Shown in pieces: positions 338-33,787 of a stretch of DNA of 34,714 nucleotides. This DNA is from a virus (lineage: Duplodnaviria > Heunggongvirae > Uroviricota > Caudoviricetes). Positions within the stretch are counted from its first letter, which is position 1. Every line of letters begins with the position of its first letter. The notes under the pieces are model-generated. The model was given only the letters and a program-made list of their open reading frames with translations, was not told where the DNA came from and ran no database searches. The stretch is from the IMG/VR virus record IMGVR_UViG_2740892487_000001. The stretch is one strand, 5' to 3'. The translations under genes were made by a program, and so were the position numbers.

Positions 338-2340
338 ATGCTTAAGTATAGGAAAGAGCTTGATGGATTGCGTTGTTTGGCAGTGATGGCTGTCATCATT
401 TATCACTCTGGCATTTCTTTGTTTGGAGTAAAGATATTCAAAGGCGGATTCTTTGGAGTTGATGTCTTCCTGGTTCTTTCAGGATATTTAATTACAGATA
501 TCATTATAAATAAACTTGATAGCCGCTCTTTCTCACTAACTGACTTCTATTGGAGACGCATAAAGAGAATTGTTCCTGCTCTTATTGCTATGCTTGTAGT
601 TACATCGATAGTGGCTTATAAAATTCTTCTACCAAATGACTTAGTAAAATTCTCTGAATCTCTCATTTCTGCTATTTATTTTGGTTCTAATTATTATTTT
701 CTTGGTGAAGATAGCTATGTATCAAATGCAAGTATATTTAAACCACTCCTTCATACATGGAGTCTTGCTGTTGAATGGCAATTCTACGTATTTTATCCAT
801 TCTTATTGATTTTTATAAATAAATTTATTAAGAAATACAGAGTATTACTTCTTATATTGATTTCTGTTTCATCTATTGTGTATGCAAATATTATAGTTAG
901 CAGTTACCCTGACTTAGCATTCTATACGCTACTACCAAGGGCATGGGAATTAATTCTTGGTGGAATTGTGTCTTTTTTTTGTAAAAGAAAGAAGAAGCAA
1001 TATACATAAAGACCAATCATCTTTAACTTCGTTTCTGCCAGTAATTGGAATGTTGATGATTGTTTATTCAATGTTGTTTTTTGGAAATAACATCAAACAC
1101 CCTTCATTTATCACCCTAATACCTGTAGCTGGTTCATGTTTGATAATCGCATTTGCAAATGGTGCCGATTTAATATCTAAAATATTATCCTTGCGTCCGA
1201 TTGTCTTTATTGGCTTGATATCATATTCTCTATATTTATGGCATCAACCTGTTTTTGTTTTTTACAGGATATTATTTAGTGAAAATATCACTCCTTATTA
1301 CTGTGTAGTATTAGCATCAATTTCAATTGTTATTTCGTCTTTTTTCATATTTTTTTATTGAAAAACCATATAGAGCAAAACATGTTAAAAGTAAGAATAC
1401 AATAGTATTAGCAACATCTCTGTCAGCATTGCTTGCTTTCTCTATTTATGCAAAGGCCGATGGGGGTTTTCAGTGGCGTCTTGCAGGCATTCTGAAAGAA
1501 ACCTATGAAATGTACAAAGAACCAGAGTTCAGGAAATTGGCAGATTATTCAAATATTGGTAAAAGTTTAAGAGGTGAACCTGATAGTTATTTATGTGGTT
1601 TACGTTCTCTTGATAACCCGTGTAGCTTTGGCGGTGATGACATCATCGTATTAGGAGATAGCTATGCTGGACAATATGCACCAACAATTTTAGATTACTC
1701 AAAAGAAAATAACAAAGGGATGTTATCTCTCACGTATGAGCAATGTCCATTTGTGAGTGATATGTGGTTTGGCAATGTTCCTGAATGTGTGGTTGTCAAT
1801 GAGCAAAGATGGAAAGCCATTGATTCTCTTAAGGGGAAGAAAACTATTTTTATAGCTGCTAATTATGATCAATTCCCGCTTGCTAAGGCTCCTGTGTCAT
1901 CTCCTTTAGAGATGGCGAAGCAAAATTTTAGTGGCGGAGATTTTTTAGGTGGCGAGCAGGCATATATCTCTCTATCGAATAATGTTAAGAAACTCGTGTC
2001 CAAGGGGCATGATGTATATATTGTATACCCAACCCCTAATCCTTCTGAAGATGTTGCCAACATAGTATTCTCAAAACTAAGATCTATCAATTATAAGTTT
2101 GAGACAACATACACAAGCAGCAGAAATGGGCTTAACTTAGCAAAACAACAATCCGATATATTAGATAAATATATTCCTGACATGAAAGGATTGCATAAGA
2201 TAAAACCTATAAAAACTTTATGTGATGACAATGGTTGTAGAATAATTGACCATAACGGCGGATTATATAATGTTGGTTTTCACTTATCTAAATCTGGTGT
2301 TAAAGAAATACTTAATGATAACGGCTTTGTAATTAATTAG
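338..2340 (+). CDS. Membrane O-acetyltransferase (acyltransferase-3 domain, OafA/Oac-like) with C-terminal SGNH-type domain; frame broken twice at T-runs (973-980 and ~1339-1354)
   Basis: The three track ORFs 338-1009, 957-1361 and 1327-2340 join if one T is removed at each run. N-terminus MLKYRKELDGLRCLAVMAVIIYHS and multiple hydrophobic segments are typical of acyltransferase-3; the C-terminal part contains GDSYAG. Visibly AT-rich. Confidence 0.7.
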
Positions 2341-2370
2341 TTTATTTTGTCCACCAACATTATCAATACT

Positions 2371-2402
2371 AAAAAAACAGCGGCAATTTCGCCGCTGTTT
2401 TT
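2371..2402. terminator. Bidirectional intrinsic terminator between the convergent acetyltransferase and tailspike genes
   Basis: A7 - CAGCGGC - aatttc - GCCGCTG - T5: GC stem flanked by A-run and T-run, placed between two convergent stop codons. Confidence 0.7.
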
Positions 2403-4348
2403 ATATAAAATAAGTAACAGAACCAATTATCTCAGCATTATTACCTAGAACATTTAGTTGTACATTCATATTACCAGCGACAGATGTAGCTCCTGTAAAT
2501 GTTATGTAATTACTTTCAGCATCAACCCTAGGCAATAGCGCAGCCACAGCCGTAGTTAAGTTATTGTAATACCCAATAGATCCAACAGAAGTAGCCCCTG
2601 GTCGTGACAAAAAAAGGTAATCCACCTATCCTATAACCATCTCCACTTCCAATAATCGTTATCCCTATGTGAAAACTTGCGGTCACTACATCACCAGTTC
2701 TTGTATAACTTCCAACTTGTTTATAGTAGGAGGCATTTCCGCCTACAGTCGGAATCCAAACTCCAGTTTCTATATCACCACACGACCAGTCTTCTGCTGT
2801 TGTTAGTTTTCCAGTAACAATAAATTTACTTCCACCACCAGAATTATAAGGAACAAAAATTGGTTTTATTCTTGCATAAGTGTTACCGATCTGCTCATTA
2901 AGATCATTTCTATCAATAAGAACTTGACCATTTTCGAAGTTTGAAATCTGGCAGTCTGTTACACTCCAGTCTCTTAACTTCACATCAGCATCCATGACAC
3001 CAATAAGCTTACCAGCATTACCAATTTTTTCTTTATGCATATTTACATACACATTTCTTACCGTAACAGACTGAGGGAACAAATAATTATCAGGATTAGT
3101 TTTATCACTTAAAACAGATATTACCCAAGGTCTGTGTTGAGTACTTACTTCACAATAAAATCCATCAATAAGCGTTCCAGATGCCGCTGGTCCAAGTAGT
3201 ATTCCACCTGTAGAGTGATGCGCACTACCTCCAATTACTCGCCCCTTAACGCAGTTAATATAGGCAAAATATCCTAAATCTTGATTGTTATATGCTGCCA
3301 TGGCGCAATCTCTTATTGTAACTCTAGAGTTCCCACCATCATATGCACTGCCATCCGTTTTTTTACCAGGTAAAGAAATGAAATTACCTATTGCAATATC
3401 ACTAAAAAATGTTTTTTTATAGCATCCTTCTATAAGGATATCCCAGTTTTCAAACTGAGCATATATATCATAAGAATCCTTATTACCATAATCAATAAAA
3501 TCACAATATTGTATTTTTGGTGTAAAAACAAAGCTCTTTACCATTATTCCAAACTTTGCATTTTGACCACCAGTGAATCTAATTCCATAAATTACATAAT
3601 CACCTTGATAAAAATTATCTGCTGTTGGTTGATCTTCGTCAGTTGGATCTCCACACTTAACTGCAGCGTCAGTTCCAGTATAGTTTATTGTTGCTCCTTT
3701 AAAAGAGTATAAAGTAACAGGTCTAATTAAATTCAATGACTCGCTAATAAGATAATTTCCATCTGGAAAGTACACGGATACTGGTGGAGAATATTTAGGT
3801 CTTGTGTTAACGTAATCTTTAAGTTTGAGCACCGCAGCATCATCATTCGTGCCATCACCTTTAAACCCAAAGTCTTTCGCGCTCACAAAATCTGCATTTT
3901 TATCGTGCTGTGCTCTCTCGATTGCCATAGAGAGGGGTTGTTTTACACGAACAACTGAATCATCAACTAATAATGGCCCATTTTCAGATAGCAATCTTTC
4001 CTGAAATTGATCAGGGTCATATTTCAGCACATTAGGGAAATAGAACTGCTGCGTGCCATACGCATCATATACAGCCATAGAATGGCCTTGCACAGTTACG
4101 AATTTGGCAATCTGCCCGTTATATACCGGATATCCAGCAGCGTTAATGATGATTGGCTGTGCAACAGAAACGTGAGAGCCGTCTTCGTTTTCCACATAAA
4201 CCTGAATCTGGTTTTCAGGATTTACAGGGTCAGTGTCAATTTTACCGATATAAATTTTGCCATTGGCTACGGCTTTAAAAGAACGAGCCATAGTGAAGAG
4301 TTGCGAAGGCATGCTTACCACAACATTGGCATTTATTGAATCTGTCAT
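2401..4348 (-). CDS. Tailspike protein: P22-like head-binding N-terminal domain plus a different beta-helix-like receptor-binding/depolymerase domain; frame broken at A7 (2608-2614)
   Basis: N-terminus [60 protein letters not shown] closely matches the P22 gp9 head-binding domain as I recall it; the rest diverges. ORFs 2561-4393 and 2401-2625 join if the run is A6. Confidence 0.85.
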
Positions 4349-4434
4349 TTTAATTTCTCTATATGTTAAGCAAGCAATATTCATTGCTAGCATGTTTTTG
4401 TATAATGAGTGAACTTTATTTAAAGGTGGTTAAC

Positions 4435-4945
4435 ATGAACTGGAACGAAGTATTCGTATTAAAAGACGATGGACTCCTGTACTGGAGTGACCAATATCTT
4501 TCAAGACCCAAAATGTTCAATATCTCTAAAGAAAAGCCTGCAGGACATATATTCAAGGACAAGAACAGGAAAACATCTTATATAATTATCAGGTATCAAG
4601 ATAAAATATACGCCGCCCATAGGATAATATGGGAAATGTTTTATGGTGAAATCCCTTCAGGAATGCAAATTGACCATAAAGATGGTAATGGGTTAAATAA
4701 TTCAATAGACAACCTGCGTCTAGTTAGTCTCGGTGAAAACCTAAAAAAACAAATCTAAATACACAAACAATACATCCGGGTGCGCAGGTGTTTCATGGCA
4801 TAAGACCCATAAAAAGTGGGTGGCATATATTAGCGACGCAGGGAAGCGCATTAATCTCGGATACTTTAAGTGTCTCGATGATGCAATTGCTGTAAGGCGT
4901 GAGGCTGAAAAGACCTATGGTTATCATGAGAATCATGGTAGGTGA
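4435..4945 (+). CDS. HNH endonuclease with C-terminal AP2 DNA-binding domain (homing-endonuclease-like); frame broken at A7 (4743-4749)
   Basis: HNH motif QIDHKDGNGLNNSIDNLRLVS; after the stop at 4758 the +1 frame continues NTSGCAGVSWHKTHKKWVAYISDAGKRINLGYFKCLDDAIAVRREAEKTYGYHENHGR (AP2-like). Shine-Dalgarno-like AAAGGTGG before the ATG at 4435. Confidence 0.7.
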
Positions 4946-5012
4946 TATCTGACATTTCATTGCTCCAGATACAAGGAATCGCCGCAGCGTAGCTACGGTG
5001 AATTTTGGGCAT

Positions 5013-5035
5013 AAAAAAACCCAGCCGAAGCTGGG
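5013..5035 (-). terminator. Intrinsic terminator downstream of ant
   Basis: Minus strand reads CCCAGC-TTCG-GCTGGG followed by T7, just after the ant stop codon. Confidence 0.7.
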
Positions 5036-5054
5036 TCGTTGCGTTGGTTATCTG

Positions 5055-5957
5055 TCAGTAGTTATGTACTGAAGGAGGTAATTCTTTATTCTTAAGTCTC
5101 ATCCATGCGGAAAGATTCGTTGGTCCGTCTGGCTCATTAATATCAACATCTCGTGTGTGGTTTATTAAAACGTCTCTCGCCATTCCGATAACATACGAGA
5201 ATTCATGACCGTAGTCGTAGCATCTGCCGGAATAGTTCGATTGAATTTGTTTTAATGCCGGATACAGTTCGCGGAATAATGCCTGTGAGCGGTTGGCATA
5301 ATCCCATAGCCATACAAGGCTGTTTGCTTCTTTTGCAGAAAGCTCGTTGGTTTTCTTCTCTTGTTTGCCGATGAACTCGCCTTCAAGCACTACCCTGTGG
5401 ATGTACTCTACTGCTTGCGGTATCTGAGATGAATCAAGCTCTTCAATACTTTCCACGTTGAAACGCTGATGAATCATTGCATAAGCTTCTGGGTACATTA
5501 GATGCTTTTTGCTGACTAGCATATTTACAGCATCACGAAGCGGAGTCCTGTCATCAACAGATGTTTTCTTACGTGCATTTTCTGCCTTTCCCTTCGTCCA
5601 GTAGTCATGCAGCACAGTAAAGCATTCTTCCTGGTACTGAATCAGTTTATCGCGGATGTCAGCACGAACTTTCTCAGGGTTGATGCTGAACAGCCATCCA
5701 TTTAACTTCTTCAAAGGAAGGCAGAGTAGCCTACGAAGCTTACCATCAGCGGCAACCATGTTCATATGAACACAGTTGAATTTGCTAATCTGCTTCATGA
5801 GTTTTGTTTGCTGCGTTGACCAGCTCATTCCAAGGTTTTTAACGATTGGCTTCATCGCAACATATGCAACTCCGGCAGTCATGGCGGTGATAATCTGCTG
5901 ACCATTGAAAGGTACGTAAGAGGTGTTCACTGCTTCTAAAATTGCTATACTATTCAT
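5055..5957 (-). CDS. ant: Antirepressor Ant (P22 immI type; N-terminal part conserved, C-terminal half divergent)
   Basis: From the ATG at 5957: [39 protein letters not shown]..., recalled as the P22 Ant N-terminus; sits directly downstream of arc as in P22. Confidence 0.85.
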
Positions 5958-6025
5958 GTTGGTTTTTCTCCACGAATTTACTGACAACAGAAGCCCTGAC
6001 TGTTCCCGCAGTTGGGGCTTCAACT

Positions 6026-6187
6026 TTACGCGCCAATACGCCCTTCCTTCTTAAAGCTGTCCATTACTCTCTGATAAATCTCAGAGTTAACAGACCGACC
6101 ATTCTCTTCCGCCACCTTGCGTACCAAATCCAATACTTCTTTAGGCCACCGCAAATTGAACTGCGGCATTTTGCTCATTCCTTTCAT
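6026..6187 (-). CDS. arc: Arc repressor (ribbon-helix-helix)
   Basis: [53 protein letters not shown] is near-identical to P22 Arc as recalled. Confidence 0.95.
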
Positions 6188-6201
6188 GTTCACCTCACAA
6201 T

Positions 6202-6222
6202 ATAGGTCCACGGTGGACCTAT
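6202..6222. promoter_or_regulatory. Mnt operator (O_mnt), perfect palindrome
   Basis: ATAGGTCCACGGTGGACCTAT, recalled as the P22 mnt operator; lies between divergent arc and mnt. Confidence 0.85.
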
Positions 6223-6229
6223 TGAGAAT

Positions 6230-6250
6230 ATAGTAGAGTGCTTCTATCAT
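6230..6250. promoter_or_regulatory. Arc operator (O_arc) / Pant region
   Basis: ATAGTAGAGTGCTTCTATCAT, recalled as the P22 arc operator; immediately upstream of arc. Confidence 0.85.
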
Positions 6251-6277
6251 GTCAATACACTAACTTGGAGTGATGGC

Positions 6278-6532
6278 ATGGCTAGAGATGATCCGCACTT
6301 TAACTTCCGCATGCCTTTGGAAGTAAGAGAAAAATTAAAATACAGAGCAGAGTCAAATGGTAGATCAATGAACTCAGAATTGTTGCAAATCGTCCAAGAT
6401 GCTCTATCGAGACCATCTCCTGTAAAAGGTTATCGCAATGAAGCTGAACGATTAGCCGAGATGCAGGCTGAACAGTTCAAGTCTGTGGTATTTGAGACAC
6501 TTAAAAACATGTATGGCAAGGATGCAAAATGA
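6278..6532 (+). CDS. mnt: Mnt repressor (ribbon-helix-helix)
   Basis: MARDDPHFNFRMPLEVREKLKYRAESNGRSMNSELLQIVQDALSRPSPVKGYRNEAERLAEMQAEQFKSVVFETLKNMYGKDAK matches P22 Mnt as recalled. Confidence 0.95.
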   Translation: MARDDPHFNFRMPLEVREKLKYRAESNGRSMNSELLQIVQDALSRPSPVKGYRNEAERLAEMQAEQFKSVVFETLKNMYGKDAK

Positions 6533-6590
6533 TCGATTACAACCCAGCAAAAAAAAGAAATCATCGCAGCTAAAAAAGTGCCTAGAGCAG

Positions 6591-7112
6591 ATGAAATCAT
6601 CTACAAACCATGATGATTTTGAAATGCACTGGCGAGAATGTCTTGGGCATATAGAAAAGTCTTTCAGTAAGTTGCTCTGTGCAACAAAGCCGGTTAGTGG
6701 AAAATTTAGCAGCCACTTCAACCAAAAGTTCATGCTTAGAAAAACAGACAAAACACTTGCTTACCTTCACCAAGCAAGAAATGCTGATCATCATTCCACT
6801 ATGGAAATCTCAAAACTTGAACCTCCTTATACTACTCTTGGGGCATTTCCGGGAGCAAGAAGCCATTATATTAAAGAGTTAATCATTGATTCAACAGGGA
6901 AAATAGCAAAATACGAAGGCGACCCTATGATAGTTGAGTTTCATCCAGCAACAACTATGCCTATAACCGTAAGAAACCAAGGCAAAGATTATCCACCTCC
7001 AACAGAACATCTTGGCGAAAAGCTTGTTGATATACATCCATCTGTTCTTGCCTATCTCGGTATACAATTTTATGAAAAATGGATAGATGAGTCGTGTGCA
7101 ACGTTTAGATAG
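6591..7112 (+). CDS. Hypothetical protein, AT-rich cargo gene downstream of mnt (start uncertain; an ATG at 6529 overlaps the mnt stop but runs in another frame across an A8 tract)
   Basis: Long ORF 6492-7112 with a visibly AT-rich composition unlike the flanking phage backbone; no family recognised from sequence. Confidence 0.5.
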   Translation: MKSSTNHDDFEMHWRECLGHIEKSFSKLLCATKPVSGKFSSHFNQKFMLRKTDKTLAYLHQARNADHHSTMEISKLEPPYTTLGAFPGARSHYIKELIIDSTGKIAKYEGDPMIVEFHPATTMPITVRNQGKDYPPPTEHLGEKLVDIHPSVLAYLGIQFYEKWIDESCATFR

Positions 7113-7279
7113 TTATTTTTGATAATTTCAAGTATTTCCTCTTGACTTTGATTTACCCAAACGTGATCACACTCATGAAACCAGATTATGCTTCCTGTTT
7201 CGCCTTGTGCAATATAGGTGATCATGTTTTCATTAACAATTATTACTGAGTTATCATGTGCGCAATTTAGTTTTATCAA
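7070..7279 (-). CDS. Hypothetical small protein (69 aa), AT-rich, 3' end overlaps the preceding gene
   Basis: ORF only; no recognisable motif. Confidence 0.25.
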
Positions 7280-7341
7280 TTCGCATATCCTATCGTGACA
7301 AAGTAACTAGAAAAACTAAAGAGGTTGGTGTGTCTGATTCT

Positions 7342-7825
7342 ATGAGTTACGCTGTGCTAGTTGCCGCAACTCTATTTATGGGGATAGGGTTGCAGATTGC
7401 GTGGTTCTTTTTTTTCTAGTTTTATTAAACGCAAAAGAATTGAATCAAGGATATCTGAGATTTCTATTGCTATAGGGAAAAATGCTGAAAATCCAGAGAA
7501 TGAGGCCTGCGCACTGAATTACCTTAAAGAAAAGTTTTCCCCTGAAAAATTTGAAAATAGAATTACTGATGCTCTTGGATTGGTAATATCAGTAATTCAT
7601 ATGCCACTAAGTTTGCTGATAACAGTGTGGTACTTCGCCATGATCGCCGGAAGAATATTTGGTTTCATGAATATAGAGCCTGTAGTTCTTTGGGTTCCAA
7701 TGATACTGCAACTGTTGTTAAGCGTTGCTATCTTTATTTTTTCTGTTTTTATAAAAATTGTCTTTGGAAGATATCCCGGAGAAGCTAAGGGATTTAATAA
7801 AGAATTCATAAAAACTATAAAATAA
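7342..7825 (+). CDS. Putative inner-membrane superinfection-exclusion protein (SieA-like by position); frame broken at T8 (7408-7415)
   Basis: ATG at 7342 gives [24 protein letters not shown] and rejoins ORF 7397-7825 if the run is T7. Several hydrophobic segments; lies between the gp16 and mnt homologs where P22 carries sieA. Confidence 0.45.
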
Positions 7826-7847
7826 ATGCCGTCCTTGGCTTACAGTG

Positions 7848-9694
7848 CTACTGCCGGGTCGCTTCGTTAGCTAAGAGCGGGCGCACGGCAGTAGCAGCCT
7901 GATTTAGCGCTCTTTCATAAGCTGGCGTTCCAGCTTTAGTGTTTGCCAGACGTAAGAGCGCATTCCTTGCTGCTTTGGACTCATACAAACGCATCATTGC
8001 ACCGAAACCAGCCTCAAGCCCCATTGATACGCCAAGAGTCGCAGTTGCGCCAATCGTCCTTATCCTGTTGGCTTGAGATTGCCCCGTCTGAGTTACTACA
8101 TTTGCGGTGTCTGATCTTGCTGTTTGCTGTAGAACTTCATGAAGAGCATCAAGTTCTTTCATGTGCTTTCCAGAAAAAATAGTGTTGTAAATTTCACCGC
8201 CTGACTGAGATTTCAGCTTATTAACTTCCGTGATGAACTTGGCTGGAGAGTCACCGGCCTTTTCCGCTATTTTGCTGACGTAAGCTGCACGCATAGCATC
8301 TTTCCCTTTATCATCCAATGCGCTCCAGATTCGTTTCACGTCAGATGGTTTTCTGCTTAATACAACGGTATTTATAAGTTCAGGACTGGCTTCACTGTTT
8401 GCCTTGTTGAGCTTGTTAGCAATGTTTTTATTAAGCACCTTATTATAAACGTTTGCATAATCGGAATTTGCTTTAAGGTATTTTGCTGCGTCTGACGCAC
8501 CGAGGTTTTTTGCAACTGCGTTACGAAGGTCTTTTGACATTGCATTCTCTACCATATTGGTAGCTGCTTTTGCCTGGTTGGGGAAGACCATAGCATCTCC
8601 CTGAACATTAGATCTAAATGCTGTTCTGTGCTGACGCAATAGATCAAACGTAACATCCAAATCAGTTGCAGGGTTTGCTAATTCTTCACGTAGGTTACGC
8701 AAGGATGTAAGCAGGCTTTGATTGGCTGAAGTCCCAAGCCGTTCCTGTCTTGCGATCGCTGTATTCAGAGCATTCATGGTATTTGTGGTATCAACTGCGG
8801 CATTACCCATTTTATTGGTGACGTCATTGATAACAGCGCCAGCAGCATCCTTCCGCCCCCTTAACGTGGTGGTCAGAGATTTCACCACATCATCAGGGTT
8901 GTACTCACCAAAACGGTCAAAATAATTGCTTACCAGCTTACTACGCGTTGCATATTGCTCCGCTCGCTTTGAGCCTGTCCCGAGCAAAGCCCCCTCGGCA
9001 TCCTGAGTAAGGCCGCGAGTGAAAGCATTTTTCGGCGGGATAACATCAGATGTCATTGGTGTCACACCCATTGATTCTGAGGTGGCAATTTTTTTTTTTT
9101 CGCTACTTCTGGCGCGATATCGCCTTTTATAGCCGTTATTCCACGCCCTATTCCCTTTGCTGCTGCGGAAAGAACACCCTGAGCGGCAAGGTTAACTCCG
9201 GCATTTATGGCTGCATTTTGCGCGAAATCACCTTTCTGGTTTGCGGCTTCTGCCAGTGATCCAATAGCCATGCTTCCTGCCGTTCCAACTCCTGGAACTA
9301 AATACCCGCCAATTGTTTCTCCAGCTTGCGCATAAGGGTCTGTCGGTCGATCGACAGGGCGATAAACATCATCCAAAACCTTGGGACCACCAAGACCCTG
9401 GCTGATTGCATTAATCAGACTTGCGCCACCCTGCAATACGTCAAATGGTATGTTTACCAGACCACGACCAGCCTGCTCTGCAATTTGCCCTGCACTTTGA
9501 CCACCTGTGAGCCAATCGCCAGCTTGTTGCATCAATGATGGTTCTTCCTGTGTTGGTGCATTATTGGCCTGATTAACTGTTTGTTGCTGAACAGCCTGAC
9601 CAGCAAAATACTCATCAATGGCGGTGCCAATATCTTCGGTGCTCGTACCATCAGGAAAGGTAAATGTCTTACCGTTTGCAGTTACTTTCATCAT
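7848..9694 (-). CDS. Ejection (injection) protein gp16-like; frame broken at the T12 run 9089-9100 (A-run encoding KKKK on the coding strand)
   Basis: N-terminus [32 protein letters not shown] resembles P22 gp16; ORFs 9062-9694 and 7848-9071 join with a length change in the homopolymer. Confidence 0.8.
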
Positions 9695-24703: not shown

Positions 24704-24897
24704 TAAAAAATCCCGAAACCGTTATGCAGGCTCTAACTATTACCTGCGAACTGTTTCGGGATTGCATTTTGCAGACCTCTCAGCCTGCGATGGTTGGAGT
24801 TCCAGACGATACGTCGAAGTGACCAACTAGGCGGAATCGGTAGTAAGCGCCGCCTCTTTTTATCTCACTACCACAACGAGCGAATTAACCCATCGTT
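24704..24897 (-). ncRNA. Lambda-type 6S RNA (pR' leader transcript terminated at tR')
   Basis: Span from the predicted pR' start to the tR' hairpin (CCCGAAAC...GTTTCGGG + T-run at 24704-24760) is about 194 nt, matching lambda 6S RNA; sequence matches lambda as recalled. Confidence 0.7.
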
Positions 24898-24932
24898 GGG
24901 TCAAATTTACCCAAGTTTATTCAAAAAGTCAA
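24897..24932 (-). promoter_or_regulatory. Late promoter pR' with overlapping Q-utilisation (qut) region
   Basis: Minus strand TTGACT (24927-24932), 17-bp spacer, TAAATT (24904-24909); flanking sequence matches lambda pR' as recalled. Confidence 0.85.
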
Positions 24933-24974
24933 TATCATGCCGTTAATATGTTGCCATCCGTGGCAATCATGCTG

Positions 24975-25598: not shown

Positions 25599-25783
25599 CG
25601 TCTTCCCTTCTTGCCCTGTTTGACCATCAGGACGCCGTTAACTATTACGTGACGCTCGCCTTTGCTGTCTCGGTTGTACTTGAGCACTGTTCCTCTTGCG
25701 CAGGAAAGCATCCTCGCCACTTCGGTCTGATTGCCTCGTGTCTGGATAAGAAGCTCTGGTATCGTTTGAATTGTGGCGTTCAT
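25595..25783 (-). CDS. ninH: NinH-like protein
   Basis: MNATIQTIPELLIQTRGNQTEVARMLSCARGTVLKYNRD... resembles lambda NinH; directly upstream of Q. Confidence 0.75.
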   Translation of the reverse strand: MNATIQTIPELLIQTRGNQTEVARMLSCARGTVLKYNRDSKGERHVIVNGVLMVKQGKKGRR

Positions 25784-26142
25784 ACGTTCTCCAGTTCGGT
25801 GATTTTTATTCCAAGCCTTCCGCCTGGTACTTTCACACCACGAATTACGCGAATGTCATCGAATTGCTCGTCGTCTTCCGCAAATCCGGCGTGGATAAGG
25901 GAGTCGAGTAAACCCTTCAGGATGTTATCGAGGTCGCGGCGGCGGGAGTCTGGAACGTCTGCGATGACTTTGATGCGGAGTCGTGATTTGGTGAAAATGT
26001 CTAACTTGAGTTGGCGGATGATTTGCTGAACGTCTTTTCGGTATTTCTCGCCTTTATCGCTGATGTAGTATTGGCTTCCCCGTCTTCGCCAGTAGGTGTT
26101 CACCGACGGCGGGTATGGAAGCACAAACTGATATTAGTTCAT
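25780..26142 (-). CDS. rusA: RusA-family Holliday junction resolvase; in-frame TAA at codon 3 (26134-26136), GTG restart possible at 26124
   Basis: ATG at 26142 overlaps the upstream stop (ATGA) and reads M N * Y Q F V L P Y P P S V N T Y W R R R G ...; the LPxPPSxN and DxxRRDLDN motifs match RusA. Confidence 0.75.
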
Positions 26143-26429
26143 GGCTTAATCTTCCCCTCCTTCAGCAGTATCGCCTGCGTCCTGATCACGCCTTCGAGGT
26201 GGTAAAGTCTGGCGTCTTTGTTGTCGAGAATCATTGTGCGTCGGTCGATTTCATCGTGACACGCGCTACAAGCCCATGCGCCGATCAGGTCGTCAGGCTT
26301 CATTCCAGTTCCGCAAATTCCAGCCATCCGGTAATGTGCCAGAACTGTAGTTTCAGGATTACCATTGCATACGCCGTAAATACGTACCTGGCATTCTCTG
26401 CCGCGCGCTTCTTTGCGTAGGTTAACCAT
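26139..26429 (-). CDS. YbcO-like small Cys-rich protein (DUF1364-type, putative nuclease)
   Basis: 96-aa ORF with a Cys/His cluster (CNGN...CSACHDEIDRR), immediately upstream of rusA as ybcO is in DLP12 by recollection. Confidence 0.6.
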   Translation of the reverse strand: MVNLRKEARGRECQVRIYGVCNGNPETTVLAHYRMAGICGTGMKPDDLIGAWACSACHDEIDRRTMILDNKDARLYHLEGVIRTQAILLKEGKIKP

Positions 26430-27153
26430 TAAGCAGCCTCTCCTGTTACTTTCAGCATTCCGTTATCGAGCAGCTTTCTGGTCAGCCACTGTTGGCCACG
26501 TCCGGTGATTTTTGTAGTGAACGATATCTGTATTCCGTGATTTGTGTTGACCGCTGTTTCTTTCACTGTGAAATAGCCGCGATCCATATATTCCTGCATT
26601 GGCACATTGCGCCGGGAACCTGAAGCAATAAGGATTTTGTGATCGCGCATCCACGCAAACAGTTTGTTTGGACCAATACCAACAACCTTTGCAAAGTTTC
26701 CAATCAAAATTCCGCTGGCCTCGCCAACGCGATCGGCAAACTCAACTTTAGGTGCGGCAATTGCGAGCTGGTTTTCCAGTTGCATTTTCTGCTCAGCAAG
26801 ATCAGCAGCAAGGCGCAACGCTTCTGGTAGCGTTTTTGGGATATTAACCGCAGTTTCTTCAAGCTCTCGCCAACGGTCAACAAGACGAGCGGTGAATTCC
26901 GGCGACAACTGAGCGACGACAATAATGCTGTCTCGCTTACCTTGTTCGCCCTCAAAAACGTAAGCCTCTACGCCACGAAGTAATCCTAAGTTATTGATTT
27001 TTTTTCGAAAACCACCATTGGGGGATTTCGGATCACACCTCGAGCCGCCAGTCGTTCAATAGATTGTTTCACCTTGTCATGACGACTTCCCACCAACTCA
27101 GCGATTTCAATGCTTGTCATTTTGATGGCATTGCCATTTATTAACTCACTCAT
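26429..27153 (-). CDS. Rha-family regulatory / antirepressor-like protein; frame broken at T8 (26998-27005)
   Basis: N-terminal MSELINGNAIKMTSIEIAELVGSRHDKVKQSIERLAARGVI (Rha-like); the C-terminal part continues in ORF 26429-26908 and is restored by a 1-nt length change in the run. Confidence 0.6.
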
Positions 27154-27322
27154 CGTCTTCTTCCTCGTACATTGAGCTATTCGGATCGCTCATCAGTTCT
27201 GCACAGCAGTGCTCACACATGTGAACTTCCAGCACATGCAGCTTCTGACCGCAGTTAGCGCACGTTAAAGCTCGCTCGACGCTTTCTTTCTGGTATTGAA
27301 GGGATTGGGATGGGCTAAGCAT
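27146..27322 (-). CDS. ninF: NinF-like protein
   Basis: [58 protein letters not shown] matches lambda NinF as recalled; below the track's 60-aa cutoff. Confidence 0.85.
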   Translation of the reverse strand: MLSPSQSLQYQKESVERALTCANCGQKLHVLEVHMCEHCCAELMSDPNSSMYEEEDDE

Positions 27323-27671
27323 TATTGGCGTCCTGCATCATGAGAAAGACAATCATGGCGGCACGGAGTGGATTGTCATATGCGACACCAACATTCGGTC
27401 CGGCATCATCAAACAAGTCCCTTGCGTTGTCTGTGGCGCACGGCATTGAGGGATTGTTTAAAATTATGCTGATGTTGTTTTCAGTGATAATCGGCCATGC
27501 GTCTGCTGGGTTATTGCAGTAGTCGTACCATCGATAATTACCATTTGCTTCATTGCCAACAGACCGTCCATCTGCGTTGTGCGGATAACCTAATGGTTTT
27601 GCCCCAACTATCGCTTTAAATACTCGCTTGTTAATTTCAAAATCACTTAACTGTGAATAATCCATTGTCAT
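27315..27671 (-). CDS. NinX-like hypothetical protein
   Basis: ATG at 27671 overlaps the ninE stop (ATGA); 118 aa; no family recognised with confidence. Confidence 0.55.
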
Positions 27672-27844
27672 TTCCTCGCACGATGTCTTAGCCACCGGAT
27701 ATCCCACAGGTGAGCAGTGTAATTGAATGTTTTCACATCAGATTCTTTTGGGATTGGCTTGGGTTTATTTCTGGAGCGTTTGGTTGGAAGGTATTTGCAG
27801 TTTTCGCAGATGATGTCGGTGAAACTTCGTCGCTGTCGTCTCAT
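27668..27844 (-). CDS. ninE: NinE-like protein
   Basis: [58 protein letters not shown] matches lambda NinE as recalled; ATGA overlap with ninB. Confidence 0.85.
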
Positions 27845-28251
27845 TCGTACCTCCTGTCGGTAAATCTGACACCCTGACCAATAGCCCATGCTGTCGTGTA
27901 CTCAATCAGGCTTGCCATGCGCTTCACGCTCATCTGTGCGCTGCTTTCGCGAATGTTGACGTATTCGCCTTCAAGCCCGGGCAAAGCATCAGCTTCCTGC
28001 TTTGTCGCCACTGCATGACCGCTAATCAACAAAATCTTCCATTGTTCTGGTTTTAACCATTTGCCGCACCATTGAACCTGACGAGCGATATCCGCCAGCA
28101 TCGCGTGAAATTTTGCGTTCTGGTCAAGGTTGCGCTTGTAGTCAGTAATGCGGATGGTGACTGGCTTGTCTTTATCGAGTGGTGTTGCGAGGATGGCGTT
28201 GATTGCGGCTTGCTGTTGTTGCTTACTCCTGAGGAAAATTGTCTGTTTCAT
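27841..28251 (-). CDS. ninB: NinB recombination protein
   Basis: [66 protein letters not shown]... resembles lambda NinB. Confidence 0.8.
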
Positions 28252-28259
28252 GGAATTCC

Positions 28260-28472
28260 TCAGTATGCGTAAAGGCTGTATCCATTTTTATTTGGCCTGG
28301 TGCCATAGCCATATAGGCTCCAGCCATCCTGTTTTCTCTCACCAAAAATATGCTTGCGGTATTCTTCCTGCTGGCGTCTCCATAGTTCCATCATGTCTGG
28401 CTGGTTCTTTTCTCGCATTTTTCGAATCTGCTCAAGGATGAACTCTATTTGCTGCTGATTTGTCATGCTCAC
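28260..28472 (-). CDS. Hypothetical protein (70 aa)
   Basis: ORF co-oriented with the nin operon. Confidence 0.4.
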   Translation of the reverse strand: MSMTNQQQIEFILEQIRKMREKNQPDMMELWRRQQEEYRKHIFGERKQDGWSLYGYGTRPNKNGYSLYAY

Positions 28473-28476
28473 TCCT

Positions 28477-28692
28477 TCACTTTAAATCCAGGTTCCGGAT
28501 AATTCTGTCACACTGAAAATCAGTATCGATTTTAACCAACCGGCGAAGAACGCGGTCACGCGGATAGCTACGTGGCTTAGGGGCGTTTTTCTGTCTCTCG
28601 CCAGTCGGAAGTCTGGAAGCAGACCAGTACCGCTTTGCACGACCAATGTTCTCCTGAAAGTCGGCGCGGACAAGCTCAACTATCGTACTCAT
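28477..28692 (-). CDS. Hypothetical basic protein (71 aa)
   Basis: ORF whose ATG overlaps the stop of the upstream small ORF (ATGA); an alternative frame, 28482-28679, is also open. Confidence 0.4.
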   Translation of the reverse strand: MSTIVELVRADFQENIGRAKRYWSASRLPTGERQKNAPKPRSYPRDRVLRRLVKIDTDFQCDRIIRNLDLK

Positions 28693-28781
28693 TTCTTAAA
28701 GCCTCCAATTACCCTCCCCCAAATAAAAAGGCCTGCGATTACCAGCAGGCCTGTTATTAGCTCAGTGATGTAGATGGTCAT
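28689..28781 (-). CDS. Small hydrophobic peptide (30 aa), putative single-pass membrane protein
   Basis: MTIYITELITGLLVIAGLFIWGRVIGGFKK; start and stop each overlap the neighbouring genes as ATGA. Not in the ORF track because it is under 60 aa. Confidence 0.45.
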   Translation of the reverse strand: MTIYITELITGLLVIAGLFIWGRVIGGFKK

Positions 28782-29047
28782 TGCTTCATCTCCCTTTCCA
28801 TTTCATCAATGTCAACGTCATCAGGAAGATGGGAGCAATACGCCGCTATACCATGATGATTTATCTCATACCCTTTGAACGTTACCATCTGGCGCGTAAT
28901 CTCAACTTCGTTCAGGAATCCGTCATCGCATAACTGCCTGGCTATTTTCGATTTGGTCTGGATTATTGGTAGTGCCTGTTCTTTCAAAGCGCATGATATT
29001 TGTGCATCCCATGCCTTTTCGAGAATGGCTAATTGTTTTTTATTCAT
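28778..29047 (-). CDS. Hypothetical protein (89 aa) downstream of the helicase
   Basis: ORF coupled to the helicase stop (overlapping TGATG). Confidence 0.5.
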   Translation of the reverse strand: MNKKQLAILEKAWDAQISCALKEQALPIIQTKSKIARQLCDDGFLNEVEITRQMVTFKGYEINHHGIAAYCSHLPDDVDIDEMEREMKQ

Positions 29048-30483
29048 CAGAATCCTCCTTTCTTCTTGGACTGCGGTTCCTCGCGTTCACGGCGGCGCAT
29101 TTCAGCAGACTGTTGGTCTGTGTCATAAATAGCGCCATTTGCCTGAATGCAGTACACCGTGCCGGTATTGCCATGACGATTGAGACGAAGGATTAGTTCA
29201 GTTTCACCAGGTGGAACACTGTCATCAAAAGCGCCTTCACGATGGATCCCGACCCAATAATCGCAATCCTGTTCAATCTGCCCTGTATCTCGTGAGTCAC
29301 TTGGTAATGGGCGTTTATTGGTTCTGCTTTCCAGTGCGCGGTTAAGCTGCGTCAGAAGCACAACAACGCAATCAAGCTCTTTGGCAAGGTTCTTCAGTCC
29401 TTTGGTGATCATGCCGTAAGCAAGGTCGTTGCGATCGGCCTTCTCAGCGGTCATTAGTGTCAGGTAATCGACCAGAATCATGCCAACACATCCTTTTTCT
29501 CGCTTGATTCGACGGCTTTCGCTGACGATTTGAGCCAGAGATAATCCCGGCGTGTCGTCGATGTAAAGCAGGTCGATTTCACTCAAGCGATTGGCTGTTT
29601 CGATCGCCCTGTTGAAGTCACCATCGTAATCACCCTGATAGCCGTCATCGGCGTCATTTGTCGCCGGAAGGTAAAAAAATATTCGGGTTAACACCAGACT
29701 TCTGCCCTACCAGTTTTTCCAGTATCTGGTCACCTGGCATTTCAAGGCTGAACATCAGAGCTGGCTTTTTCTCATGCACTGCGCAGTTGATTGCCATCTG
29801 GCTGTATAGCGTCGTTTTCCCCATCTTAGGGCGAGCGCCAATGACAAACAGAGAGCCTTTCACCAGCCTTTCGGTGACAGCATCCTGTCCAGCGATGGGA
29901 TCCCTGTGCTCATTACTCGTTGTTCGCCTGACGGGTCAAATCGCTTCTCAAGGTCGCTAACCCAGTCTTCCATGACCTCACCAAATGAGCGAAGGCCGCG
30001 ACGCGATCCGGTTTTTGCATGGTCTGTCAGTTGCGTGAAAATCGCCTGAATAGCTTCGTACTTCTGCGTTGCAGTCATTCCGTTGCGGGAATAGAGCAAT
30101 TCCGTCGCTTCAGTCATGCGGTTGATGGCGTAGCGTTCCATTGCGGTTTCACGAACCTGCATTGCATAGGCAACGATGTTTGCTGCGCTTGGCGTGTTCT
30201 TTGCGATCTCAGCGATATAAGCAAAACCGCCAACAGACGCCGTTAACGATTTGCGCTCCAGTTCATCGAAAAGCGTCAGCCCATCTACTGGCTTTTGCTC
30301 CCGGTGCATTCTGGTTATTTCTTCGAAAAGGATTTTGTGTGGTCGGCTGTAAAATGAATCGGGCTTCAGCATCGCCAGAACTTTCTGGACGCGCTCACTG
30401 CTGTCATCATCCAGAAGCAATCCACCAATCACCGCCTGCTCAGCCTCGATGCTATGGGGCGGCGCATAAAAATTATCGGTCAT
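29047..30483 (-). CDS. DnaB-family replicative helicase; frame broken near 29860-29870 and at A7 (29673-29679)
   Basis: N-terminal PPHSIEAEQAVIGGLLL; Walker A GARPKMGKTT; downstream IDDTPGLS...ILVDYLTLM. The three ORFs 29860-30498, 29654-29863 and 29047-29694 are collinear pieces. Confidence 0.85.
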
Positions 30484-31363
30484 CGTGTTCACCCTCACGA
30501 ACTTTCAGGTAGGTATTATCGTTAAGCAGGAAATCAAATCCCTTTTTGTGCCAGACGGTTCCGCGTTGATGGTTTGGGCGTTCTTCGAACATCCATCGGC
30601 AATTTTCGCCTACGTAGCTCAAATAATTTCTCCAGTCCTGCATCGTGAACCCATGCCCGTCAAGCTGGCGGGTTATCACTCCGGCTTTGCGCCAGAACGT
30701 TCGGATCTGGTTTTTACGCTTGTCATTCAGTGCGCGGATTCTTGGCGCTTCAGGAAGGATTTCGTGGTAAGCATCGACAACATCCTGACAGCTAACGGAA
30801 GGTTTTTTCTTGTCAGACTTTTTGTCTGCTGTGGCACTCTCTAATACGTCAGTATTAGAGATATTATTTATATTATTGTTTATGGACAACCGTTGGACAA
30901 CCGTTGGACAATCTCCGCTGAGAGCCGCGCCATTACTGGTGTTTGCGTTGGACAACCGTTGGACAACCGTTGGACAATTTTTTGCCTGAAAATCGTCATA
31001 TTTAACGATTGTAAACAGGCTAAATTTCTTCCCCATCGAGCAAATATTAAGCATCCCTTTCGACTCAAAAGTCCGTAATAAGCTCCGAACTTTGTTGTCG
31101 GGGATGAATGTTTCTCTGACCAGCGACGGGCGTCCAGTTATCATCTGACCGCGATCAACAGTTATCGGACCGATATCCGTATTGACGACAGTAGATTCGT
31201 GATTAGCCTTGAGGATTAAGTGAAGCCAAAGATGTACTGCCTGAGAGTCCTTATAGAGCCTGCTGTCCATAAACTGGCGGTGTATAGAGACATACCCCAT
31301 ACTGGATGCCTCCTGATGTTGTACAGGGTTATGCCTGTAATCAGCTAACTTAACGACGCCCAT
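30473..31363 (-). CDS. Replication initiation protein (O-like function; the origin iterons lie inside the gene)
   Basis: Position between cII and the helicase; the iteron arrays encode a repeated CPTVVQRLS segment inside the ORF. Confidence 0.7.
   Translation of the reverse strand: MGVVKLADYRHNPVQHQEASSMGYVSIHRQFMDSRLYKDSQAVHLWLHLILKANHESTVVNTDIGPITVDRGQMITGRPSLVRETFIPDNKVRSLLRTFESKGMLNICSMGKKFSLFTIVKYDDFQAKNCPTVVQRLSNANTSNGAALSGDCPTVVQRLSINNNINNISNTDVLESATADKKSDKKKPSVSCQDVVDAYHEILPEAPRIRALNDKRKNQIRTFWRKAGVITRQLDGHGFTMQDWRNYLSYVGENCRWMFEERPNHQRGTVWHKKGFDFLLNDNTYLKVREGEHDDR
30850..31010. repeat. Replication origin: two arrays of 11-bp iterons (CCGTTGGACAA) flanked by AT-rich DNA
   Basis: TGGACAACCGTTGGACAACCGTTGGACAAT at 30883-30911 and again at about 30947-30978, with AT-rich sequence on both sides. 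Confidence 0.8.
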
Positions 31364-31511
31364 GTTTCACTCCTGCTTTGGCTAGTCTGTAAACACCAAC
31401 AAGGCGCTCTGCGAACGCCCTGTTATTTGCTGCGGCTACCACTAATCCCTCAGGTGAATCAGGGTGTCGAATCTCTTCTTTTTCCTGGTATTTCTTACGA
31501 CGTTTTGTCAT
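31350..31511 (-). CDS. Hypothetical small basic protein (53 aa) between cII and the initiator
   Basis: MTKRRKKYQEKEEIRHPDSPEGLVVAAANNRAFAERLVGVYRLAKAGVKHGRR; ORF only. Confidence 0.3.
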   Translation of the reverse strand: MTKRRKKYQEKEEIRHPDSPEGLVVAAANNRAFAERLVGVYRLAKAGVKHGRR

Positions 31512-31543
31512 AATTACTCCTGTGGATTGATCCAGTAATTCCC

Positions 31544-31840
31544 TCAGAATTGCATATCAATTTGCTCAGAATCCTCGGTGGCAGCCGGGGATTTTTTCTT
31601 TGTGATTCCATCCAATGCATACTTAAAAGCCCTGCTAATCGGACTGATGTCTGATGCCATTCCGAAAGCACACAAGACCGAAGCAATAAATCTCCAGTCC
31701 GTTCTGCTTATCTTCGATTCATGACAGCCAATCATCTTTGCCAGACCGCGCTGGGTAAGCGTTGACAGGTTGATGAGTAAATCAGTTTCAGCGCGATCAA
31801 TTTCTCGCTGTGTTGGCTTGCTATAACTTGCTTGTGTCAT
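31544..31840 (-). CDS. cII: CII-like transcriptional activator
   Basis: C-terminus KKKSPAATEDSEQIDMQF parallels lambda CII (KKRPAATERSEQIQMEF as recalled); HTH segment LAKMIGCHESKISR. Confidence 0.8.
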   Translation of the reverse strand: MTQASYSKPTQREIDRAETDLLINLSTLTQRGLAKMIGCHESKISRTDWRFIASVLCAFGMASDISPISRAFKYALDGITKKKSPAATEDSEQIDMQF

Positions 31841-31922
31841 TTGTTAATTTTCCAATAGTGAATAGTTAGTTGAAAGGTATGCGTGGAAACGCATATGGCC
31901 TTAGTTGGTCAGATATCTTGGG

Positions 31923-31971
31923 GCTCGCTTTGTCAGCGACGTAGGACGAATGTCCATTGTGAAAAGAGCGG
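31923..31971 (-). promoter_or_regulatory. nutR: boxA-like CGCTCTTTTCACA and boxB-like hairpin GTCGCTGACAAAGCGAGC
   Basis: Located between cro and cII on the pR transcript; boxB resembles the P22-type GCGCTGACAAAGCGC. Confidence 0.6.
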
Positions 31972-31977
31972 TGTTAC

Positions 31978-32188
<211 letters not shown>

Positions 32189-32198
32189 TTAGTACAGG

Positions 32199-32272
32199 CA
32201 ACCATTATCACCGCTAGAGGTAAAATAGTCAACACGCACGGTGTTAGAAGTTTATCCCTTGCGGTGATAGAT
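32199..32272. promoter_or_regulatory. OR1-OR2-OR3 with divergent pR and pRM
   Basis: TATCACCGCTAGAGGTA (32206-32222), CAACACGCACGGTGTTA (32230-32246), TATCCCTTGCGGTGATA (32253-32269) match the lambda OR half-site pattern; pR -35/-10 sit on the minus strand. Confidence 0.85.
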
Positions 32273-32276
32273 TTAA

Positions 32277-32995
<719 letters not shown>

Positions 32996-33026
32996 TTGTT
33001 TTATTTTTCACGTAATAGGATGATTT

Positions 33027-33368
33027 ATGACACAATTTCAACTTGCATTAATCGCTAGAGAAGTTGATGGAGAAGTCATCCATCTTCGCACCAAAGACGG
33101 ATACATCAATGCCACCGCGATGTGCAAGTCTGCGGGGAAGCTACTTGCTGACTATACACGACTAAAAACAACACAAGATTTTTTTGATGAATTATCACGC
33201 GATATGGGGATTCCCATATCGGAGTTAATTCAATCATTTAAAGGCGGAAGAGCAGAGAATCAAGGGACTTGGGTTCATCCAGACATCGCAATTAATTTAG
33301 CTCAGTGGCTATCTCCAAAATTTGCAGTGCAAGTATCGAGATGGGTGCGTGAGTGGATGTCAGGTTAA
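33027..33368 (+). CDS. KilA-N domain protein, in the position occupied by rexA in lambda
   Basis: 113-aa ORF directly downstream of cI on the same strand; sequence is consistent with a KilA-N/APSES-type DNA-binding domain (judged by eye, low certainty). Confidence 0.6.
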   Translation: MTQFQLALIAREVDGEVIHLRTKDGYINATAMCKSAGKLLADYTRLKTTQDFFDELSRDMGIPISELIQSFKGGRAENQGTWVHPDIAINLAQWLSPKFAVQVSRWVREWMSG

Positions 33369-33404
33369 AGAGCGCCTGCCGAACTCCCTATCCACCTTAA
33401 GCGG

Positions 33405-33787
33405 TATATGACAAACCGAGGCAGAGTTCCTCATACGCACTTTTCTATGCTTAATGAACTGACGTTTAACTTGGTTGCGCCACTTGAACAGGCCGGATAT
33501 ACGCTGCCAGAAAAAAATGGTCCCTGATATTTCAGAGGGTAGGGTTTTCTCGCAATGGCTCCGTGACAACCGGGGGGTTGAGCCGAAGACATTCCCAACA
33601 TATAACCATGAGTACCCAGATGGCCGGACATTCCCGGTACGTCTATACCCAAACGAATATTGCAGATTTCAAACAATACTTCAACGAAGTGTGGCTGCCT
33701 CAGTACGCTCCTAAATATTTTGCTGAACGAGACCAAAGGGCATTGACGTTGATTGAGAAAATCATGCTACCTGACCTTGATTCCTAA
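33405..33787 (+). CDS. Hypothetical protein downstream of the KilA-N gene, same frame as it; frame broken at A7 (33511-33517) and again near 33640
   Basis: ATG at 33405; coding-like sequence continues through three frames (…PDISEGRVFSQWLRDNRGVEPKTFPTYNHEYPDGRTFPVRLYPNEY / ADFKQYFNEVWLPQYAPKYFAERDQRALTLIEKIMLPDLDS) and ends 9 nt before a terminator. Confidence 0.45.

Follow-up and report, generated by a model that had tools for sequence, protein, structure and literature searches.

Why should a phage element whose gene order is complete carry so many frameshifts, most of them at runs of identical bases? The stretch of DNA analyzed here (34,714 nucleotides, the whole of which we call the window) is the entire contig LAWZ01000048.1 of E. 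coli RCE11 (assembly GCA_001631005.1), as an exact-protein lookup showed. A sequence-only reading of it had listed thirteen long runs in coding regions at which the frame changes, and had preferred miscalled run lengths in the consensus to a heavily decayed cryptic prophage as their cause. That preference is supported by the provenance of the contig, by comparison with independent copies, by a control and by the effect of correction. On these grounds we consider it very likely that the reading frames were broken by errors in the consensus of a flow-chemistry draft and not by mutation. Of the A/T runs whose true length is 5–8 bases, 17 carry surplus bases (five in one case, a single one in the other sixteen), and one G is missing from each of two GG doublets. 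We infer that one or two of the listed sites are real alleles in homopolymers: certainly 26998–27005 and possibly 973–980 and 4743–4749.

The element itself, at positions 235–34714, is a P22-like temperate phage. Its head, ejection and tailspike genes form a module of the Lederbergvirus type, its immunity region (cI/cro/N) is of the lambda type, and it also encodes an O-antigen acyltransferase. It resembles the P22-like (Lederbergvirus-type) E. coli phages with lambda-type immunity, such as IME10, APC_JM3.2 and the HK620-like prophages at argW/intS. We found the P22-type portal, scaffold, coat, gp4/gp10/gp26 tail hub, gp14, gp7/gp20/gp16 ejection proteins, tailspike and TerS/TerL as well as the nin region, Q, the lysis cassette, the O/P replication genes and cI/cro/cII/N, all in the usual order. 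The genes of the window are 95–100% identical to annotated homologues by tblastn, and Pfam families are recorded for the identical genes of two of its relatives (L019 and L014). Nearly the same phage sequence has been assembled independently from numerous isolates and gut metagenomes. Relatives of the element are located beside intS at tRNA-Arg, the region of cryptic lambdoid prophages such as KpLE1/CPS-53 at argW in K-12. Positions 1–234 are the end of an IS903B (IS5-like) element, 99.6% identical to the IS903B of over 5000 plasmid records; the contig ends within this repeat and resemblance to the phage relatives begins at base 235. This insertion sequence, at the contig edge, is the only one in the window.

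A frame change coincides with all thirteen listed runs in a tblastn comparison of the window with full-length homologues. The genes concerned are those for the acyltransferase (two sites), tailspike, HNH endonuclease, SieA, gp16, TerL, a KilAC/Roi-like antirepressor, the P/DnaB helicase, Cro and cI (two sites), together with a small ORF. The statement that nearly every long coding run is affected was, however, too strong. The window holds 24 runs of at least 7 bases, 19 of them coding, and 13 of these 19 lie at a frameshift (12 window-specific, one genuine); the remaining six, at 1350, 3358, 3412, 31989, 32350 and 33179, do not. The list was also incomplete, with five frame-breaking sites (6549–6556, 6572–6577, 11413, ~29866 and a genuine G6 at 33572–33577) and three non-coding over-calls (23031–37, 23080–88 and 33959–65) left out.

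When the window was compared with independent assemblies of the same phage (L014, L019, L024 and L025), only one substitution but 19 indels were found over ~34 kb. Seventeen of these indels are added bases in A/T runs, sixteen of one base and one of five, and the other two are losses of one G from GG. L014 differs from window positions 16983–34497 by ten one-base gaps and no mismatch, L019 and L024 differ from positions 235–15293 by one mismatch and nine indel events, and L025 shows no mismatch at all. The platforms of these comparison assemblies were inferred from contig names in MEGAHIT and SPAdes styles. At runs of at least 3 bases the relatives are never longer than the window. The probability of a miscall climbs with homopolymer length, as in a flow-chemistry artefact: over-calls by true run length number 0 of 1389 at 3–4 nt, 2 of 81 at 5, 9 of 31 at 6, 5 of 12 at 7 and 1 of 2 at 8. 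Among runs of at least 7 bases the error rate is the same in coding (12 of 19 over-called) and non-coding (3 of 5) positions. As a control, nine independent assemblies were aligned pair by pair, and the 363,909 aligned bases contained 63 substitutions, five other indels and no homopolymer indel; the indels of the window are not common to independent assemblies, with the exception of a genuine T8 at 26998. Since the window is never the shorter one at runs and no homopolymer indel occurs among the nine assemblies, the homopolymer pattern exceeds chance.

Could the run lengths nevertheless be real, so that slipped-strand mutations had inactivated the genes of a cryptic prophage now heavily decayed? 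Real length variants do occur elsewhere at two or three of the same tracts (T8 in L009 and L010, A7 in L012 and L013, T8 in L014–L018), and the phage is bordered at base 234 by the end of IS903B, so that some real damage exists in RCE11. Against decay stand the 19 indels with a single substitution relative to independent copies, the lack of premature stops from substitutions, the common direction of all long-run changes and the fact that non-coding runs are affected at the coding rate. The mixed types of lesion and accumulated substitutions expected of pseudogenization were not found in the window, which shows one substitution, no nonsense change and a complete gene order. Truly degraded copies of this lineage do exist (L001, L009, L010 and L025), and they look different: they have large deletions and IS insertions, whereas the window combines a complete gene content with scattered +1 homopolymer shifts. 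Thus L001 fuses window position 9152 to 32144 and carries ISSen4, and L025 has two large deletions. The sequencing platform, moreover, is known for exactly this kind of error (PMC5517970). With 19 indels against one substitution, and with all long-run changes in one direction irrespective of coding status, we regard decay as very improbable. Mutator-driven decay was considered as well and rejected on the same grounds.

The choice of relatives matters for such a comparison. A first reference panel consisted of annotated phages and complete E. coli genomes, which are mosaics only 95–97% identical to the window; the bias towards +1 was visible there, but error and divergence were inseparable at this level of identity. 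On this panel the runs at 26998 (T8 versus T6) and 33572 (G6 versus G5) had appeared as errors, and both calls were overturned by closer relatives, which an exact-protein lookup had brought up. The prophage of strain 81 (L001) is 99.8% identical to the window, yet it has lesions of its own, which make it an unreliable yardstick: its gp16 tract is T6, its cI has G3 versus G4, its N differs by 2 bases, ISSen4 has inserted and 23 kb are deleted.

In the left part of the element the first break lies in the O-antigen acyltransferase gene (plus strand), where positions 973–980 read T8 versus T7 in the six closest relatives, a +1 frameshift. T8 is also present at this position in two more distant remnant prophages (L009 and L010); in a survey of the tract T7 was found in nine sequences and T8 in two, the latter limited to more distant relatives. 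Hence the T8 at 973–980 is probably a miscall and possibly a real allele. The second break in this gene had been placed at ~1339–1354. The shift itself stands, but the responsible run is T6 at 1340–1345 (plus strand), a +1 over-call of the T5 seen in all relatives, and not the neighboring T7 at 1350–1356, which is correct and unchanged in the relatives. The tailspike gene (minus strand) is broken by A7 instead of A6, a +1 over-call at 2609–2615, one position away from the 2608–2614 given before. The HNH endonuclease gene (plus strand) is broken by A7 at 4743–4749, again +1, versus A6 in the seven others with this tract; A7 occurs also in L012 and L013, two relatives of only 96% identity, and the survey counts are A6 in seven and A7 in two. 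As the same alleles are real in the L009, L010, L012 and L013 assemblies, an artefact at 973–980 and 4743–4749 is probable and not certain.

Further along, a 193-aa hypothetical gene on the plus strand (hyp193) carries two +1 over-calls, one near its 5′ end at 6549–6556 (A8 versus A7) and one at 6572–6577 (A6 versus A5), and sieA (superinfection exclusion, plus strand) is broken by a +1 over-call at 7408–7415 (T8 versus T7). The ejection protein gene gp16 (minus strand) is broken at 9089–9100 by five added bases, T12 versus T7. The claim that one base restores the frame at every site does not hold here, nor at 26998, where the run is two bases longer than T6 and equal to that of the closest relatives. 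Among 29 other sequences, 28 have T7 at this tract and L001 has T6; T12 was found in none of them. This is the sole error of more than one base, and reading T7 as T12 exceeds a typical flow miscall, which counts against an artefact at this tract. In gp7 (minus strand) one G is lost at 11412–11413 (GG to G), a −1 frameshift with no long run there.

In the right part the large terminase gene (TerL, minus strand) is broken by a +1 over-call at 20309–20315 (T7 versus T6). Two non-coding runs follow, both over-called by one base: 23031–23037 downstream of Rz (A7 versus A6) and 23080–23088 (A9 versus A8 in L014). The run at 26998–27005 in the KilAC/Roi-like antirepressor gene (minus strand) is different. 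Its T8 is shared by five independent assemblies (L014–L018), where it divides the gene into a 55-aa and a 159-aa ORF; it is two bases longer than the T6 of three first-panel prophages (L003, L004 and L008). On this comparison it is certainly a genuine allele and no artefact, and the reading of every listed site as a miscall fails here. The P/DnaB-like helicase gene (minus strand) has a +1 over-call at 29673–29679 (A7 versus A6) and a lost G at 29865–29867 (GG to G); because these two shifts combine, the gene falls into three ORFs. In the immunity region cro (minus strand) is broken at 32054–32061 (A8 versus A7, +1), and cI (plus strand) is over-called by one base twice, at 32596–32602 (T7 versus T6) and at 32683–32689 (A7 versus A6). 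The one base by which, according to the earlier reading, cI and cro exceed their lambda counterparts is in keeping with L014 and mEp234, whose cI (237 aa) and Cro (66 aa) are intact. Beyond cI, the small ORF downstream of a KilA-N gene is over-called by one base at 33511–33517 (plus strand, A7 versus A6). The frame-breaking G6 at 33572–33577 (plus strand) is genuine, being common to L014, L015 and L025, with G5 in L001 only. A last non-coding over-call of one base lies upstream of gene N at 33959–33965 (A7 versus A6).

Undoing the 19 indels makes the contig 100.000% identical to L014 over 17,507 bp and 99.993–100% identical to L019, L024 and L025. Eleven genes return to full-length single frames: those for the acyltransferase (666 aa), tailspike (648), HNH endonuclease (169), hyp193, SieA, gp16 (612), gp7 (230), TerL (499), the helicase (478), Cro (66) and cI (237). 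Of nine truncated protein fragments of the window, seven are private to this contig, being absent from a collection of ~15 billion proteins. From its sequence, the corrected phage appears to be an ordinary and intact P22-like phage with lambda-type immunity; nothing notable sets it apart from P22-like prophages, and it is identical or nearly so to L014 and L019–L026 in public assemblies.

The provenance of the contig agrees with consensus errors. RCE11 was sequenced on an Ion Torrent PGM with a 318 chip and the 200-bp kit, assembled with MIRA 4.0 and then run through a homopolymer corrector that uses reads plus BLAST (PMC5517970). The source data of LAWZ01000048.1 are therefore those of a flow-based platform with known homopolymer miscalling. 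According to its own authors the corrector cut artificial indels only ~2.5-fold, i.e. ~60% were removed, and the authors of the RCE11 assembly conceded leftover artificial frameshifts (PMC5517970). As in the window, the indels that flow-based sequencers (Ion Torrent PGM, Roche 454) leave behind in drafts, where they show up as artificial frameshifts, are confined to homopolymers, steeply dependent on length, without accompanying substitutions and indifferent to coding status. The direction does not match, however: long homopolymers are reported to be under-called in raw PGM reads (Bragg et al. 2013), whereas all 17 long-run errors in the window are over-calls, one of them by five bases. A bias at the consensus or corrector step therefore has to be assumed, and we infer that it was set while the consensus was built or corrected (MIRA, HomoHomo) and not in the raw reads. 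The mismatch in direction has no effect on the conclusion that the bases are wrong.

It might be that a subset of the tracts are hypermutable contingency loci that switch accessory genes, with RCE11 carrying "off" alleles over an artefactual background; the acyltransferase T7/T8, HNH A6/A7 and gp16 poly-T tracts would be the candidates. Phase variation is classically associated with genes for O-antigen modification. In exactly its truncated form (223 aa) the acyltransferase is found in five contigs from at least three assemblies, and the truncated HNH fragment is present in two Logan assemblies. Nevertheless, T7 and A6 are found in all of the closest relatives (0–1 substitutions over 15 kb), gp16 has T7 nearly throughout and T12 nowhere else, and tracts of 7–8 bases are short for efficient switching. 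We give only a slim chance to a minority of the tracts being real slippage alleles in RCE11. The main candidate would be the acyltransferase T7/T8, as the T8 "off" form recurs in independent assemblies, and the 12-base poly-T of gp16 a weaker one.

Runs of A or T are also known slippery sequences, and programmed recoding by ribosomal or transcriptional slippage could in principle still yield full-length proteins. Yet in every relative the same proteins are encoded in one frame with a shorter run, so that the shifts lack conservation, which by itself refutes recoding. Three expanded runs lie outside coding sequence, and some genes have two shifts. Recoding thus has next to no probability.

With consensus errors as the preferred explanation, the frameshift pattern itself holds no new biology, and the result is mainly a warning about data quality in the public record LAWZ01000048.1, which has roughly one artificial frameshift per 2 kb of AT-rich phage DNA. 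The remaining Ion Torrent assemblies of the RCE01–RCE11 series presumably carry a similar error load. Because of the artificial frameshifts, about a dozen pseudogenes appear in the annotation of a P22-like prophage that is intact and widespread, and analyses of pangenomes, pseudogenes, prophage intactness or phase variation that use such assemblies would be misled. If slippage between T7 and T8 in the acyltransferase gene were true, it would suggest homopolymer-based on/off switching of a serotype-modifying gene carried by a prophage.

The open reading frame map of the window, which holds 24 homopolymer runs of at least 7 bases, is broken up in a manner typical of frameshifts. Using tblastn with full-length annotated homologues, frame changes were located in the genes for the acyltransferase (two), the tailspike, an HNH endonuclease, a 193-aa hypothetical protein, sieA, gp16, gp7, TerL, a KilAC/Roi-like antirepressor, the P/DnaB helicase, cro and cI (two), and in a small ORF. 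All 13 places that the sequence-only reading had listed as frameshifts do carry a frame change. The second acyltransferase shift is caused by the T6 run at 1340-1345, not by the T7 run at 1350-1356; the tailspike shift holds but lies at 2609-2615, and the gp16 frameshift, taken to be a change of one base, is a +5 expansion. The claim that nearly every long coding homopolymer is affected was too strong: 13 of the 19 coding runs of at least 7 bases lie at a frameshift and 6 do not. The list also lacked frame-breaking sites at 6549-6556, 6572-6577, 11413, ~29866 and 33572-33577, as well as three non-coding expansions (23031-23037, 23080-23088 and 33959-33965).

Relatives retrieved by exact lookup of other window proteins are independent assemblies of essentially the same phage. 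The alignment of one of them, the MEGAHIT-style metagenome contig L014, to window 16983-34497 is free of mismatches and has 10 gaps of one base each. In nine of these the window has one A or T too many in a run (20309-20315, 23031-23037, 23080-23088, 29673-29679, 32054-32061, 32596-32602, 32683-32689, 33511-33517 and 33959-33965), and in the tenth it lacks one G of a GG at ~29866. Over window 235-15293 the assemblies L019 and L024 differ by 1 mismatch and nine indel events: one additional base in the window at 973-980, 1340-1345, 2609-2615, 4743-4749, 6549-6556, 6572-6577 and 7408-7415, five at 9089-9100, and a missing G at 11413. A second segment of L019, which extends further than L024, reveals an additional +1 at 20309-20315, and a fourth assembly, L025, showed 0 mismatches. 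In total, 1 substitution and 19 indels separate the window from these close assemblies. The control was a pairwise comparison of nine independent assemblies, which over 363,909 aligned bases showed 63 substitutions and 5 indels outside homopolymers, and no homopolymer indel at all. The affected genes are all called at full length in the relatives (acyltransferase 666 aa, tailspike 648, HNH 169, SieA 188, gp16 612-613, gp7 230, TerL 499, helicase 478, Cro 66 and cI 237). Programmed recoding is excluded as an explanation of the frameshifts, since the relatives encode these proteins in a single frame. After the 19 edits, 11 genes each read as one full-length frame again, and the identity of the contig is 100.000% with L014 (across 17,507 bp) and 99.993-100% with L019, L024 and L025. 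Exact lookup in a collection of ~15 billion proteins did not find 7 of the 9 truncated N-terminal fragments. The sequence-only preference for homopolymer miscalls was correct, a verdict that rests on this comparison with independent assemblies.

When each window run of at least 3 bases was anchored by exact 12-nt flanks in close relatives, the frequency of overcalls (runs written too long) increased with true run length: 0 of 1389 runs at 3-4 nt, 2 of 81 at 5 nt, 9 of 31 at 6 nt, 5 of 12 at 7 nt and 1 of 2 at 8 nt. None of these runs was shorter in the window than in a relative. The overcalled runs are all A or T, which tells little about base specificity because there was only one G/C run of at least 6 bases. 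Runs of at least 7 bases were overcalled at the same rate in coding (12/19) and non-coding (3/5) sequence.

Exact lookup of the truncated acyltransferase fragment identified the window as contig LAWZ01000048.1 of GCA_001631005.1 in its full 34,714 bp, and the database sequence L011 is identical to it. LAWZ00000000 corresponds to strain RCE11 of E. coli, which came from a patient with Crohn's disease; sequencing was done on an Ion Torrent PGM (318 chip, 200-bp kit) and assembly with MIRA 4.0 (PMC5517970). After assembly, 'HomoHomo' was applied, a tool made specifically for removing Ion Torrent homopolymer errors and the resulting 'artificial frame shifts', and its authors estimated that artificial indels were cut by a factor of ~2.5 (PMC5517970). 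As the reduction is only about 2.5-fold, residual homopolymer errors of exactly this kind are to be expected. The documented platform explains both the location of the errors in homopolymers and their scaling with run length. However, long homopolymers tend to be called too short in raw reads of the PGM (Bragg et al., PMC3623719), whereas the long-run errors in the window are all over-calls. This direction was probably set during MIRA consensus building, or by the corrector choosing among read variants. That the bases are wrong follows from the independent assemblies, and is unaffected by how the direction arose. The only two under-calls, GG to G at 11412-11413 and 29865-29867, share the context CCA(A)G^GCC and could be examples of the sequence-specific 'high-frequency indel' class reported for this platform (PMC3623719).

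The relatives also reveal exceptions. The T8 at 26998-27005 is genuine: five independent assemblies (L014-L018) are identical to the window there. In all of them, as in window 26429-27153, the tract divides the antirepressor gene (240 aa in the first-panel prophage L003) into ORFs of 55 and 159 aa. A 53-aa variant is on record for 34 contigs. The frameshifted or re-arranged form of this gene is real and widespread. The G6 at 33572-33577 is likewise genuine, G5 being found only in L001, the prophage of strain 81. The T8 at 973-980 also occurs in L009 and L010, and the A7 at 4743-4749 in L012 and L013. These carriers are less closely related to the window (99.5% and 96% identity, respectively), and all closest relatives have T7 and A6. 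With roughly one in three such runs overcalled in the contig, both are most simply read as errors too. L009 and L010 (10001-12002) are remnant prophages in which int, acyltransferase and tailspike are followed directly by the host emrKY/evgAS genes. Their T8 allele shortens the O-antigen acyltransferase to 223 aa, as in the window, and seems to be a natural slippage allele at the tract that is probably miscalled there; phase variation of the acyltransferase tract is at most a weak possibility. At the gp16 tract phase variation is not supported: where the window has T12, T7 is read in 28 of the 29 other sequences, including 21 from dedicated scans of viral/metagenome collections. The T12 is private to this contig, and the sole error of more than one base. 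L020, L022 and L026, otherwise near-identical, have a 380-aa C-terminal ORF called in place of the 648-aa tailspike (e.g. L020 17605-18747); in L022 and L026 a 239-aa N-terminal ORF is called as well. None of the three has an indel relative to L019, and the split presumably stems from a nonsense substitution.

Could the window be a truly decayed prophage? We reject this reading: decay would bring substitutions, nonsense codons, deletions and IS insertions, exactly what real degraded copies of the lineage show, and the window is free of such lesions except for an IS903B end at 1-234, where the contig breaks. Real decay in this lineage is shown by L001 (NZ_CP088131.1, 11830-13260), a 99.8% identical copy in which an internal deletion brings window 9152 next to 32144, ISSen4 has inserted, the gp16 tract is T6 and a run in cI reads G3 versus G4. 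The metagenome scaffold L025 (ERZ28575083 scaffold_511) has two large deletions (window 18510-31754 and 14499-15756): its cro lies directly beside a truncated portal gene, and its coat and gp10 genes are fused or shortened. Either this copy, too, is genuinely degraded or the structure is an artefact of scaffolding. The IS903B (IS5-like) end matches copies in over 5000 plasmid records at 99.6% identity. Base 235 is exactly where similarity to all phage relatives starts, and the relatives have the intS-acyltransferase spacer at that point. An IS thus appears to be inserted between the integrase and acyltransferase genes of RCE11, with the contig breaking within it.

BLAST against phage and E. 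coli collections identified the window as a P22-like temperate phage. It has a Lederbergvirus-type structural module (portal, scaffold, coat, tail-hub, ejection-protein and tailspike genes), a lambda-like nin/Q/lysis region, O/P replication genes, a cI/cro/cII/N immunity region and the O-antigen acyltransferase gene; in relatives the element adjoins intS at a tRNA-Arg gene. At 15236-15293, 9.7 perfect tandem copies of the hexamer TCTGGC lie in a small ORF that separates the coat gene from gp4. The copy number varies among otherwise identical relatives (~17 more in L019, +2 in L020, +1 in L021 and 4 fewer in L022), either as a natural in-frame VNTR or through collapse of the repeat by short reads. 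In conclusion, the comparisons indicate that the frameshift pattern is a sequencing/assembly artefact over a common, intact P22-like prophage and not a real feature, and the value of the finding is as a warning on this set of assemblies.
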